A stretch of DNA of 63,497 nucleotides, filler included, from Reclinomonas americana ATCC 50394 (Eukaryota): assembly GCA_048213135.1 (NCBI GenBank). It is 11 parts of 11 records of this genome, joined end to end, with 100 filler letters (N's around TTAATTAATTAA, not from the genome) between each part and the next. Parts side by side here need not be neighbours in the genome. Positions count along the whole stretch, not along the records: positions 22,420 to 25,841 come from AFZH01022021.1; positions 25,942 to 32,970 come from AFZH01022022.1; 9 more parts are not named here. One strand, given 5' to 3'. The translations under genes and the position numbers were made by a program. Position 1 is the stretch's first letter; each line of letters begins with the position of its first letter. The notes under the pieces were generated by a model. It was not told the DNA's origin. It saw only the letters and a program-made list of their open reading frames with translations, and searched no databases. Shown piece by piece: positions 25,570 through 32,970 of this stretch.

Positions 25570-26310
25570 TCTCCGTTATGTCTAACGGTACGATCATACG
25601 CTCCCTCTCGGGATGCTTTAGCGCGGGCATTTTGCCTGCCGTCGCACCGTTCGTGTCGACGGCAGCATAGCCCGTCCACTACGGCAAATCCCCCAAGAGC
25701 GAACGAGTCGGGATCAACTTCCCGACGATCGACCGTTGTCAGTGTCCAGCCTCTGGACACTGAGCAACTGTTGCTGAAGGGCCGACGGGGTCTTCAGAAC
25801 CGGTTGCGACTATGTCGCAACATCCCTTCCCTAGCAGGCTGNNNNNNNNNNNNNNNNNNNNNNNNNNNNNNNNNNNNNNNNNNNNTTAATTAATTAANNN
25901 NNNNNNNNNNNNNNNNNNNNNNNNNNNNNNNNNNNNNNNNNCTAGGCCAGGGGAAGGACCAGTCGGAGATCCAAGTCACCAGTTCAGGCTGGCTAAATGA
26001 AACGCCGGGAAAGCGTTGGCGCGCTTCCCCGGCGTTGGAACGGGCTTGGTCGCCCTGTTCCGCGGAGCATTGTTAGACACCCGCCCCTGAAGGCGGAGCT
26101 TCGTTCAGTGAAATCAACATGCACGGAGAGCAATGATGATCATTCTGACGAAGACCTGAAGAACTCAGGCGTACACCCAAGATTTTCACGGCTATGCTTC
26201 CGCTCTCTAGAGGCCCATTTCTGGCCCTCTACGATAACAGCTCTGCATAACCGCTCAGTCGTTCGACATCAATCCCCGGAGCGAACCTCCGCGGGAATTG
26301 GAGACGGTTA
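25570..26310. ncRNA. Candidate large structured non-coding RNA or leader (spans one gap)
   Basis: More than ten stem-loops nearly end to end with no convincing ORF; see findings. Strand undetermined. Confidence 0.5.
25842..25941. other. Artificial linker/gap
   Basis: 44 N + TTAATTAATTAA + 44 N. Confidence 0.99.
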
Positions 26311-26311
26311 C

Positions 26312-26614
26312 ATGAATTCATCCCTACCAATGCCCTACCAGATGCATTCAAATTCTCAGAATGCAGGCTCGGGCGCAGCGACTTCGCTTGCTGCTGGCCG
26401 CGATCGGACCGGCAAAAAGCGCACAAAGCAGGCAAAGCCGGGCCGGATTCGGTCGGCTCTGAGCTCAGACCTCGAAGCTAGCGTGCACGAGGAGTCCTTC
26501 GAGCTCGACCTCCTGCTCCCGACGACGAGCGGGTGGCGTCGACCTTCGCTCCGCATCAGCGCGGACTGCGAATTCGGCGTCATCCGCGACGTGGCACTCT
26601 CCTTCGACAGGTGA
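26312..26614 (+). CDS. 100-aa protein whose C-terminus resembles the TnsB catalytic-domain beta-strands
   Basis: RBS GGAG at 26300; ELDLLL...RPSL...D...GVI...LSFD aligns by eye to the local TnsB; stop 4 bp before the next ATG. Confidence 0.6.
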   Translation: MNSSLPMPYQMHSNSQNAGSGAATSLAAGRDRTGKKRTKQAKPGRIRSALSSDLEASVHEESFELDLLLPTTSGWRRPSLRISADCEFGVIRDVALSFDR

Positions 26615-26618
26615 ACCG

Positions 26619-30340: not shown

Positions 30341-31359
30341 CTCGAATGACTAATCTGATGACAAGTTCGGCCGCCCTCTCGCGCGCCGAGGCAGCCACTC
30401 TCTCGCCCGGCGAGCGCCAGGATCTGATGTGGAACATTTTCGTCGGCCACGACCGCTTTACTGAGGCCATGGACGCAATCAAGCGTTTCCACATGCCAGT
30501 GAACGGAGGACGCCCGGACGTGGGTGCAGTCGGTGTGTTGGCCGGGGAAAGCCGCACCGGCAAATCGTATGCCCTAGAAAGATACGCCAAAAATTTCCCG
30601 GCCTATCAGGGCGAGGACGGCATGATCCGGCCCGTGGTGTATGTCGATATGCCCAGCGAGGGCGGCTTCCGGTCGGTTCTTCAGGCCGTTGCAGACGCCT
30701 TGAACGTGCCCCACACGAAGAGCATGGACAACGGCACCCTGGACAAACTGATCCGGGCGGCGCTTCGAGCCCAGCGGGTACAACTCCTGCTCCTCGACGA
30801 ATTCCAAGAGGTTTTCGACACTTCGAAGAAAGCCATGATCGCCCATGGTCGTGGCTTCCTTCGTAAAATCCTGAACCTGGGGACGCTGAACATCCTGTGT
30901 GCCGGCTTGCTTCAGACCTATGAGCAGATGGCAGGTGACCCTCAGCTGACCGGGCGTGGCAATCTCCCGTACAAGATCATTCGGCCCTATGGCTGGGCCA
31001 ACGAGGACGACCAAAAGCTGTTCAGGCTCTTGTGCGATTCTTTTGACGACAAGCTCCCTTTCGCAGCGCGCTCGGGGCTGAGGCGGGAGGCGATCGCGCA
31101 TCGGCTTCATTGGGTGACCGACGGCAACATCGGCCGCCTGAAGACGTTCATCTATCAGGCGGGCTGCCTGGCCATCAATGACGCGTCGGATCAGATCACG
31201 ACCGCTCATTTCGCGTCGGCGTACGATTCAATCATACCGCTCGGCTCGAAATTTCACCCATTCCGCGATGACATGTCGCGCGCTCCTCTGCCGAAAGAGG
31301 AAGAGAATCGCGTCGAGATCGCTGCAAACGGCAACGCTCTTACCAAGCAGGTGGGGTGA
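30331..31359 (+). CDS. tnsC: TnsC/TniB AAA+ ATPase
   Basis: Walker A GESRTGKS, Walker B LLLLDEFQE, QLTGR arginine-finger region, TDGNIGRL; alternative ATG at 30346. Confidence 0.93.
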   Translation: MEVTRMTNLMTSSAALSRAEAATLSPGERQDLMWNIFVGHDRFTEAMDAIKRFHMPVNGGRPDVGAVGVLAGESRTGKSYALERYAKNFPAYQGEDGMIRPVVYVDMPSEGGFRSVLQAVADALNVPHTKSMDNGTLDKLIRAALRAQRVQLLLLDEFQEVFDTSKKAMIAHGRGFLRKILNLGTLNILCAGLLQTYEQMAGDPQLTGRGNLPYKIIRPYGWANEDDQKLFRLLCDSFDDKLPFAARSGLRREAIAHRLHWVTDGNIGRLKTFIYQAGCLAINDASDQITTAHFASAYDSIIPLGSKFHPFRDDMSRAPLPKEEENRVEIAANGNALTKQVG

Positions 31360-31362
31360 ACC

Positions 31363-32970
31363 ATGTGGCAGCCTTTGAATGGGGAGCCGCCCCTTCCGTC
31401 GTGGGGCATCATCCCGCAACCGGACGAGCCCGCGCACCGGTTCTTCGCGCGCCTCACGGCACTCAATGGTCAAGACAGCGCCCGCTCGTTGGCCCATCAG
31501 ATGGGGCTGAATGGTCGCCGCGCGTCAGGCTTGCTTGAGTTCTGCCTCACTCTGCCCATTCGCGAGAAGGAGCGGCTTCGGGCTTCGACGGCCTCCGTTG
31601 CCGGTTCGAGGGTAACTCTTTGCGGACAGACTTTCGCAAAGTTCGATTGGTCGGTGCACATGGCGCGGGTTTGCCCCGCGTGTCTCTCCGAAAGCGAACA
31701 CGCGCGCAACTGGTGGGACCTCAAGGTCGTATTCCGCTGTCCATTTCACGACGAACCGCTGATTCGTGAATCAAGGGGCTCCGTCACACGCTGGTGGACA
31801 AAGAGCCCTGCGCGGTTTGCGGATGGAAATTCGATCAGGGAAAGCGGACTGGTCGGCGAATCCTCAAAAACCGATGTTAGCTGGGAAACCTACGTGCTGG
31901 GCCGAATGAGGGTTGGTGCGACCGTTCCGATAGCCCTTCTGGACGATCTGGCGTCGATGGCCGACGTTGTGAAGGCTGTGGAGCATGTCGGTCGAGCTTC
32001 GATTGCTGGCTACTCGGATCGCAGGCCAACCCTGCGGGCAGTCGGCGCAGCTCGCGAAGAAATTATACGTACCGGGTTTGCCGCTCTTTCTGAAGGATAT
32101 GACGCATTGCGACGCATCGCCGCCAGGGTGGCGGATGCATCGCCGACGGCGCAGTCTGGTAGCGAGCAGTGGGGAGCTCGCAAGCTCTTCGGCTGGCTAG
32201 GCAGATCGTACGAGTCCGGTCATCCGATAGTGCCAGAGTTTGAGAGGGCGCTGAGAGACGAGGCCCACGCGCGATCAATTTATCAGGGATGGCTTAAGCT
32301 GGACGCCTACAAGCCAGCCGATACTCCGTGCACGATGGTTGAGCTCGCTCGCCTTGTTTCCTTGACCCCGCGGATGACGCGCAAGCTGGCAACCGAACTC
32401 GGACTTGGTGATCCATCGAGCAACAAGCGGCGAAGGCATTTGTTTACAAGGGCTGCCGTCGACCAGATCAAGAATTTCAAAGAGAGCCTGCTCGACCGCG
32501 ACGGCGCATCCAGGCTGATGAAAATTGATCGCGGACATTTCGACGCCCTGGTGCACGAAAAGCGGATCGTACCAGTTTGCCGGTTCGCCGATAGCGATTC
32601 GACCTCCGACCGGTTCGATCCGAGCCACCTGGCCGATGTAGAGCAGCGTCTGTGCGCGACGTCTGGTGACGACTGGCGTCAGCGTCGAGTGCCCATCCGT
32701 GGAAAGGGCGTGAAATGGCGTCCGGAAATCAGGGCAGATCGCATGCCGACCGTCGTAAAGCGCTTTCGAGGGATGTCGGGCGCTGACGGTTTGCCAATTT
32801 CCGGCGCAGCTTCACTTCTCTGTGTTGACCTTGTCACTACGAGAAAACTGCTCGACCAGGGCATTCTTAGGCAGACAGAGGCTACTTCCACGAGGCCCCG
32901 CGTGTCTCGCGACAGCGTCGACCGTGCTAGAAAGAAATACGCTCCAGCTCGCATATACGCCAATTGCTTC
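31363..32970 (+). CDS. tniQ: TniQ/TnsD-like target selector with C-terminal HTH repeats, 3' truncated
   Basis: PQPDEPAHRFFARLTALNG, zinc motif CPACL...W...CPFH, followed by about 400 aa with HTH-like repeats. Confidence 0.9.

Follow-up and report, generated by a model that had tools for sequence, protein, structure and literature searches.

A Tn7-like transposon of soil and plant alphaproteobacteria with a predicted non-cutting TnsA paralogue encoded ahead of tnsA

We analysed a 63,497-nucleotide (nt) stretch of DNA, hereafter the window, from the Reclinomonas americana ATCC 50394 assembly GCA_048213135.1. An original prediction, made from the sequence alone, had proposed that positions 25570 to 32970 hold a new Tn7-like subtype, in which a structured RNA and inactive copies of both transposase subunits precede TnsA, TnsB, TnsC and a TniQ with helix-turn-helix (HTH) repeats in a single apparent operon. 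Five + strand open reading frames (ORFs) that overlap or lie 3-24 nt apart (26619-27413, 27410-28126, 28151-30340, 30331-31359 and 31363-32970) encode, in this order, a TnsA paralogue (TnsA'), TnsA, TnsB, TnsC and TniQ. The predicted gene order thus holds for these five genes, although the "mini-TnsB" drawn ahead of them gives way to a smaller gene in part of the same frame. Lengths below are in amino acids (aa), and G and L numbers are our handles for the genomes and loci compared.

26312..26614, + strand: small gene, 100 aa, unknown family; 20 database clusters, with a variable basic N-terminal half and a conserved C-terminal 40 aa
26619..27413, + strand: TnsA', TnsA paralogue read as catalytically dead, 264 aa; identified from tblastn of relatives, alignment and predicted fold
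27410..28126, + strand: TnsA, 238 aa, PD-(D/E)xK endonuclease subunit; E55, D97 and D111-A-K113 intact
28151..30340, + strand: TnsB, 729 aa, DDE transposase; identified from PDB TnsB chains
30331..31359, + strand: TnsC, 342 aa, AAA+ regulator; Pfam TniB 2.1e-20, AAA_22 2.7e-14
31363..32970, + strand: TniQ/TnsD-like target selector, first 536 aa only, the gene being cut by the contig end; Pfam TniQ 1.5e-6

The (D/E)xK acid and lysine of the TnsA nuclease motif are missing in all eight TnsA' sequences that we aligned, each of which keeps the first glutamate; the PD aspartate is additionally missing in the TnsA' of the window and of G001, the nearest genome to the window in our comparison. The E...PD...(D/E)xK motif is kept in 10 of 10 aligned TnsA orthologues. 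Because the eight TnsA' lack (D/E)xK while the ten TnsA have the complete motif, we read TnsA' as catalytically dead, in agreement with the inactive TnsA copy of the original prediction. The TnsA' ORF has no family match in Pfam or NCBIfam, and by BLASTP the window TnsA' matches the window TnsA weakly (E = 0.002 over 81 residues). Genes at the same position in relatives match both TnsA' and the window TnsA by tblastn, with E-values down to 1.5e-19 for TnsA. In an AlphaFold model of TnsA', the predicted local distance difference test (pLDDT) score is 71.6 overall and 80-90 over residues 60-240, and the best PDB folds are those of Tn7 TnsA (1t0f and 1f1z, E = 1e-7), with the Tn7 transpososome (9bw1) also matched. 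Together, the alignments and the predicted fold identify TnsA' as a true TnsA paralogue with a TnsA fold.

TnsA' is free of stops and frameshifts in all 10 loci that carry it, and it is found on both sides of a TnsB split at ~45% identity. Between the window and G001, mismatches in TnsA' are distributed 37/30/88 over the three codon positions, and all indels are multiples of 3; this third-position excess and the in-frame indels indicate that TnsA' is coding and under selection, looser than that on TnsA (19/15/85). We searched a library of 1.84 billion representative proteins with a TnsA' profile and obtained 93 matches at E = 0.001 or better, eight of them at E = 1e-30 or better; the best seven of those eight all lack the catalytic motif. 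Among the 93, the (D/E)xK acid or lysine is missing in 46 (two of which are fragments), all four residues are present in 38, and nine are N-terminally truncated or ambiguous. A recurrent motif-less TnsA-like class occurs in Rhizobium and Shinella (P0055, P0061, P0078, P0092 and others), in which methionine replaces the first glutamate and a hydrophobic residue replaces the lysine. We detected no match to this class among 401 genomes of the order, and in the one Shinella replicon inspected the gene (L062, ~6860-7560) is solitary, with no Tns neighbours within 7 kb; hence, we do not generalize from this class.

The other four products of the operon are those expected of a Tn7-like element. TnsA, whose start overlaps the TnsA' stop by 4 nt, matches the Pfam model Tn7_TnsA-like_N (E = 5.4e-4) and the NCBIfam model TnsA_like_Actin (5e-12), both under the curated cut-offs. 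Profile alignment with PseCAST TnsAB puts E55, D97 and D111-A-K113 of the window TnsA opposite the corresponding E, PD and ExK stretches in the TnsA portion of that protein (E = 0.05). TnsB has no Pfam match at E = 0.01; its PDB matches are PseCAST TnsAB (2.7e-41), Tn6677 TnsB (1.2e-32), ShCAST TnsB (1.5e-25) and Tn7 TnsB (6.6e-6). Residues D290, D372 and E408 are invariant in an alignment of five TnsB sequences and would form the DDE triad. TnsC scores 73.4 bits with Pfam TniB (cut-off 22.4), and TniQ scores 29.3 bits with its Pfam model (cut-off 27).

TniQ is a long protein in most relatives: 719-787 aa in eight of the ten measured, and 658 and 448 aa in the other two. In G001, tniQ continues for ~290 codons beyond the point at which the window copy is cut. 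An AlphaFold model of TniQ (pLDDT 71) contains three strand-helix-turn-helix units, near residues 323-345, 376-398 and 477-498. The model resembles type I-F3 TniQ structures over ~400 columns (7u5e_J, E = 7.8e-6) and has local likeness to a phage Xis-type HTH (4j2n_A, E = 0.22). The predicted HTH-repeat TniQ is thus borne out as three modelled units but not as sequence repeats, since the three segments are no more alike in sequence than shuffles and all HTH family matches in Pfam and NCBIfam fall under threshold. In G001, a repeat element has inserted into tniQ; the break falls at two contig ends (L003 ~19467-19574 and L004 ~12091-12214), and the same few bases border both junctions. Hence, this copy is unable to make full-length TniQ.

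The gene immediately upstream of TnsA' had been drawn as a 205-aa inactive "mini-TnsB" (25997-26614). We found no conservation of that frame: the G001 counterpart has a 2-nt indel and four stops, and mismatches between the two are flat across codon positions (20/24/30). Its last 100 codons, by contrast, are a real small gene, whose stop lies 4 nt ahead of the TnsA' start codon. Four close relatives of the small protein (97-103 aa) begin at the residue equivalent to the window's Met106 or seven residues on, at Met112. A profile built from the small gene and from Methylobacterium ORFs at the same position retrieves 20 database clusters of 48-117 aa, all annotated as "hypothetical" and none with a Pfam domain. 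Conservation is confined to the C-terminal ~40 residues, with the motif LD..., RRP..., ...G.V. These residues align with the opening strands of the TnsB catalytic core (residues 289-329) but have no counterpart of the first catalytic aspartate. The match is weak (hhalign E = 0.0022 and 0.0049, probability 13% and 7%; BLASTP E = 0.2), and we treat the likeness to TnsB as a lead rather than a finding.

To place the window operon among its relatives, we compared loci containing close TnsB homologues. TnsB-like genes at E = 1e-20 or better are present in 41 of 401 genomes sampled from the family, and close ones (E = 1e-90 or better) in six. A species-genome scan yielded 14 close loci, in Methylobacterium, Enterovirga, Mesorhizobium, Bradyrhizobium, Brevundimonas and an alphaproteobacterial metagenome-assembled genome (MAG); two distant Actinomycetota TnsB matches from the same scan (26-29% identity) were kept out of the comparison. 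Removal of duplicates (L045 = G093, L047 = G203, L049 = L040, L052 ~ L044 and L051 ~ L050) left 16 distinct loci. TnsA' lies directly upstream of tnsA in 10 of these (the window, G001, G203, G093, G130, L040, L041, L042, L043 and L044), which belong to Methylobacterium, Enterovirga and the window's genus. Profile searches of six-frame translations detected a single TnsA in the remaining six (G028, G243, L046, L048, L050 and L053). The small gene is a separate ORF in eight of the ten TnsA' loci, and is lacking from both Enterovirga loci. The ten do not form one clade in a TnsB tree, which requires three gains or losses of TnsA'. Thus, the architecture is neither unique to the window copy nor universal in the clade, and it sits in a Tn7-like transposon of soil and plant alphaproteobacteria that encodes a TnsA+TnsB transposase, TnsC and one long, TnsD-like TniQ.

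Some of these copies are irregular. In Methylobacterium komagatae (L044, 10001-12018) the TnsB match is split into two overlapping pieces, and in a Mesorhizobium MAG (L046, 9202-9908 and 12165-13063) TnsA and TnsC are both split; both copies look frameshifted or decaying. Each of the two Enterovirga loci carries a 230-nt repeat twice ahead of TnsA' (L037 (G093), 3983-4209 and 4488-4715; L038, 4112-4337 and 4612-4835).

The tniQ-side end of the element could be located in relatives. In G001, the remainder of tniQ is on another contig and ends 160 nt ahead of a tRNA-Arg(ACG) gene that points towards it. The 160-nt spacer contains three direct repeats of ~20 nt; the last of these terminates with ACA, leaving 7 nt to the tRNA 3' end. 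Enterovirga (two repeats) and G028 (three repeats) have the same arrangement of repeats, ACA and a gap of 9-10 nt, followed by a tRNA-Arg(CCG) or near-identical gene, so that in three relatives 7-10 nt separate the element end from the tRNA-Arg 3' end. Since TniQ is long and TnsD-like and the element end adjoins tRNA-Arg in three relatives, we infer that insertion beside tRNA-Arg is protein-guided, through TniQ. In the downstream Methylobacterium sequence that we scanned (the 22-kb L040 locus and ~40 kb of the L040 contig, L060 and L061), no tRNA-Arg gene was found. Because tniQ adjoins the attachment-site end, any cargo must lie upstream of the operon in G001 and G028, and the folded tract described below, together with the genes before it, may therefore be cargo.

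Mapping of the ends, as called for by the original prediction, succeeded on the tniQ side only; we found the distal end in no locus. A weight matrix derived from the three G001 sites gave nothing in L003. No inverted copy turned up when the G028 terminal site was sought upstream by fuzzy matching in 20 sequences, or when L040 7820-8000 was compared by BLAST with three Methylobacterium genomes, and in k-mer counts G+C-rich noise swamped any signal. Weight-matrix matches in the window at 11287 and 55501 are both solitary and were judged to be chance. The sequence at 11281-11305 starts with TGT and ends with GTCCGAC, resembling the terminal TnsB-site pattern of the relatives; it overlaps an ORF start, has no second site nearby and is probably a chance resemblance. 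The predicted lack of cas genes stands within its scope: we detected no cas family among 20 window ORFs scanned, the element being incomplete in the window and its upstream cargo side partly scanned. Neither a nuclease-deficient Cas effector nor a CRISPR array inside the element, the combination that defines CRISPR-associated transposons (CASTs), was seen in the parts scanned.

The original prediction had also joined a folded tract to the operon as a single unit, and the following features bear on that claim.

25575..25841, + strand: structured tract, ~265 nt; multi-branch fold with a long-range closing stem and three further hairpins, stopping at the contig end
25842..25941, no strand: assembly linker N45-TTAATTAATTAA-N45, a non-biological contig junction
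24748..25356, - strand: 202-aa ORF of unknown family, divergent from the tract and present in G001; listed as context, with membership in the element unproven

The window contains ten N45-TTAATTAATTAA-N45 linkers, at 15701, 22364, 25886, 33015, 37107, 40702, 46223, 47690, 49097 and 61688. It is thus a scaffold of eleven contigs rather than one continuous molecule, and any feature that crosses a linker reflects a guess at contig order. The operon stands by itself on a 7,029-nt contig (25942-32970), the tract is the end of the preceding contig (22420-25841), and a second relevant linker (32971-33070) interrupts tniQ. Since the linker at 25842-25941 separates them, the window assembly does not establish tract and operon as one unit. 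In G001, however, window positions 22437-25830 and 25944-32717 map side by side on one contig at ~90% identity, two bases apart, and one metagenome contig, identical to G001, carries both tract and operon. The order of tract then operon is thus real in a close relative. Four metagenome runs placed on the G001 locus gave contigs of 180-1240 nt, with no bridge of L003 12674/12677 among the pieces listed. We found no Pfam or PADLOC match for the 202-aa ORF.

The tract folds far better than shuffled sequence. The minimum free energy z-score of 25540-25841 is -8.25 on the + strand and -8.0 on the - strand, and in sliding windows only the window and G001 reach ~-10. The upstream regions of eight other loci reach -3 to -4.6, the most negative value being that of an Enterovirga region with the 230-nt repeats. 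A consensus fold with G001 contains 83 pairs, none of them broken, with one two-sided compensatory change and four one-sided changes that each give G-U on the + strand. Of the 166 paired columns six carry a substitution, as do 26 of the 89 unpaired ones; deriving the structure from the same pair of sequences inflates this contrast. The tract belongs to no Rfam family: a search of 22420-33000 with Rfam 15 gave one chance-level match (E = 0.69), outside the tract. It is present in one of 111 genomes of the genus, was not found in the other related loci, including the other carriers of TnsA', and in a metagenome scan for homologues was found in one contig, identical to G001. We predicted no promoter-like site in 24700-26700, and none of the public sequencing runs listed with the stretch is recorded as RNA. 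Hence, the structured RNA of the original prediction survives as a strong fold and not as part of the conserved architecture; most likely, judging from the substitutions, it is a + strand RNA element of the window/G001 lineage alone, either an operon leader or a cargo RNA, outside the shared machinery.

The core of the element is that of Tn7, Tn6022-like elements and type I-B1 CASTs, with the same TnsA (PD-(D/E)xK), TnsB (DDE), TnsC (AAA+) and TniQ/TnsD in the order A-B-C-Q. The one end located, in three relatives, resembles a Tn7-like end in its ~20-nt repeats and terminal ACA and lies beside a conserved host gene. It differs in having two extra genes before tnsA, encoding a 100-aa protein and a dead TnsA paralogue, and in that tniQ rather than tnsA adjoins the attachment-site end in G001 and G028. 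The tRNA-targeting elements (homing by type I-B2, I-D and V-K CASTs) likewise insert shortly downstream of a tRNA gene. CAST homing is reported to occur 30-33 nt downstream of a tRNA-Leu site (PMC10293859), whereas here the gene is tRNA-Arg, the distance to the tRNA 3' end is 7-10 nt in the three relatives, and the parts examined showed neither cas genes nor an array. Elements of the Tn5053/Tn402 type (TniA-TniB-TniQ), which transpose replicatively with the help of a resolvase, also carry TnsB-, TnsC- and TniQ-like genes; they have no TnsA-like gene, whereas the window element has two, one of them an intact TnsA. In the portions of two surveys available, the variation listed consists of tnsA presence, absence or fusion to tnsB, and second copies of tniQ or tnsC, with no second tnsA (PMC10293859, PMC8649781). 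We found no description of a second or dead tnsA in the literature searched, of which parts were seen and whose coverage excluded supplements, figures and subscription journals. As far as these searches went, the arrangement of a dead TnsA paralogue and a small gene before tnsA is undescribed.

What might a TnsA that does not cut contribute? A Tn7-like strand-transfer complex is described as having the C-terminal tails of TnsC bound by two TnsA, with TnsA and TnsB joined by beta-strand extension (PMC13251919), and catalytic TnsA mutants as switching Tn7 to replicative transposition, which stays intact (PMC8649781). We propose that TniQ would bind the tRNA-Arg region via its HTH units and recruit TnsC, TnsB and TnsA, as in Tn7. 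As a subunit that does not cleave, TnsA' would fill a TnsA position, whether on TnsB or at the C-terminal tail of TnsC, and could tune the frequency of 5' strand cutting, or which end is cut. Transposition would be damped as a result, or the balance between replicative and cut-and-paste products would shift. An added beta-strand may allow the small protein to dock on TnsA'. Because the two-domain TnsA fold is whole yet cutting appears to be lost, a non-cleaving occupant of the TnsA position is the most likely role for TnsA', a function that we infer from sequence and fold.

Truncated or inactive transposase forms that regulate their own element include the Tn5 inhibitor protein and the P-element repressors. 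TnsA' is likewise an inactive, element-encoded relative of a catalytic subunit that could compete for assembly. Unlike those proteins, it is a separate full-length paralogue of the second subunit, TnsA, and not a shortened transposase product, and its inhibitory role is putative. Our favoured reading, held tentatively and at somewhat less than even confidence, is therefore a Tn7-like element in which TnsA' serves as a non-cleaving regulator subunit, insertion at tRNA-Arg is guided by protein and the tract is specific to one lineage. Several observations weigh against it. Constraint on TnsA' is looser than on TnsA, and on the small gene it is not evident between the window and G001 (mismatches 12/15/19). 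The TnsA' module is missing from 6 of 16 loci, with three gains or losses on the TnsB tree, and is thus dispensable for the family. The tract is known from two sequences only, the same two from which its structure was derived. The G001 tniQ is broken by an insertion. The window element is incomplete: its contig stops before the tniQ-side end and neither end lies within it, and the distal end was not found in ~11-13 kb of G001 upstream of the operon, so that the mobility of the window copy is unproven.

Two other accounts of TnsA' differ in whether it is needed at all. It could be an obligate structural partner, with TnsA working only as a TnsA/TnsA' pair and the small protein as a third structural piece. 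Some nuclease heterodimers have one dead subunit, and the predicted full-length fold of TnsA', a C-terminal domain motif common to TnsA' and TnsA, and the tight gene spacing in the operon are all consistent with such a pair. However, sister elements whose TnsB is 40-48% identical carry a single TnsA with the same motifs and do without TnsA', which makes an obligate role less likely, barring an unseen difference in TnsA; we consider it rather unlikely. At the other extreme, TnsA' and the small gene could be a functionless, decaying duplication, as might be supposed from the loss of catalytic residues, the weak constraint on the small gene, the loss of the front module from several lineages and the variable N-termini of its proteins. 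Plain decay is nevertheless unlikely, a degree more so than obligate pairing, because ten intact copies of TnsA' occur across three genera; these loci, 10 of the 16 non-redundant ones and from three genera or more, show no stop or frameshift in TnsA', its differences favour third positions and in-frame indels, and the fold is retained in the model, with high pLDDT from residue 60 to residue 240.

The original prediction had instead combined the structured RNA and the inactive paralogues into an RNA-linked layer of targeting or control. In favour of such a layer, the tract has a strong fold, with substitutions that preserve pairing and fit the operon strand best, and it lies upstream of the operon in G001. 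Yet it is absent from the other loci that carry TnsA', and the upstream regions of the eight other loci fold far less strongly. A TnsD-like TniQ and an end beside tRNA-Arg account for targeting without RNA, and ~470 nt and an assembly gap lie between the tract and the first gene. Since, among the genomes searched, only the window and G001 carry it, the tract is no family feature and lends no support to RNA-linked targeting, and we regard an RNA-linked layer as highly improbable. Alternatively, the tract might act as DNA, as palindromic operators for a neighbouring regulator or as a single-strand origin or transfer-type site carried as cargo. It contains several perfect palindromes with 7-11 bp per arm, its z-score is equally strong on both strands and no promoter-like site accompanies it. 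On the other hand, each of the four one-sided changes makes a G-U pair on the + strand but would leave an A-C mismatch on the opposite strand, and the long-range closing stem persists in G001. The longest palindrome differs there in one arm, a change easier to accommodate in paired RNA than in a symmetric operator. We judge a DNA role to be a minor possibility. There is also a slim chance, in our estimate, that the small protein and TnsA' together act as a decoy of the TnsA-TnsB interface on TnsC tails that gates the transpososome, with the structured leader of the window and G001 adding an RNA-level sensor of expression. Such a decoy would be a built-in switch between silence, cut-and-paste and replicative transposition.

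Under our favoured reading, in which TnsA' is a non-cleaving regulator, the finding bears on how these elements are controlled. CRISPR-guided transposases are built on Tn7-like elements, in which TnsA determines whether insertion is clean cut-and-paste or yields cointegrates. A natural, conserved, non-cutting TnsA paralogue encoded next to the active TnsA would offer an existing means of acting on that choice, and would place control at the transposase itself, whereas the described diversity sits at target selection. If TnsA' is inert, the finding becomes an annotation note on one alphaproteobacterial clade.

Two further features of the window lie outside the operon. Long dinucleotide microsatellites, (AC)46 and (GT)50 among them, occur on the small contigs at 33071-49052, which are also strongly skewed in GC and AT and encode a protein kinase domain of eukaryotic type. 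A tandem-repeat scan of 33000-50500 gave microsatellites only; these contigs are unusual for a bacterium and may be foreign to the assembly. A module encoding an FtsH-like AAA+/M41 protein, a metallophosphoesterase and a DUF6634 protein occupies 21971-24636 in the window, L056 (G406) 5473-9125 and L057 (G242) 5105-7865. In PADLOC, the AAA+ protein matches IetA (4.6e-25) and the phosphoesterase matches PDC-S10. We considered G406 as an empty site and rejected it, since only the FtsH-like module is common to both, followed by another TnsB/TnsC operon. The operons beside the module in G406 and G242 are of the Tn5053/Tn402 type. Thus, in three genomes the module lies directly upstream of three different TnsB/TnsC(/TniQ) operons, two of them without TnsA; it could represent a defence island, cargo common to these elements or a target that they prefer.

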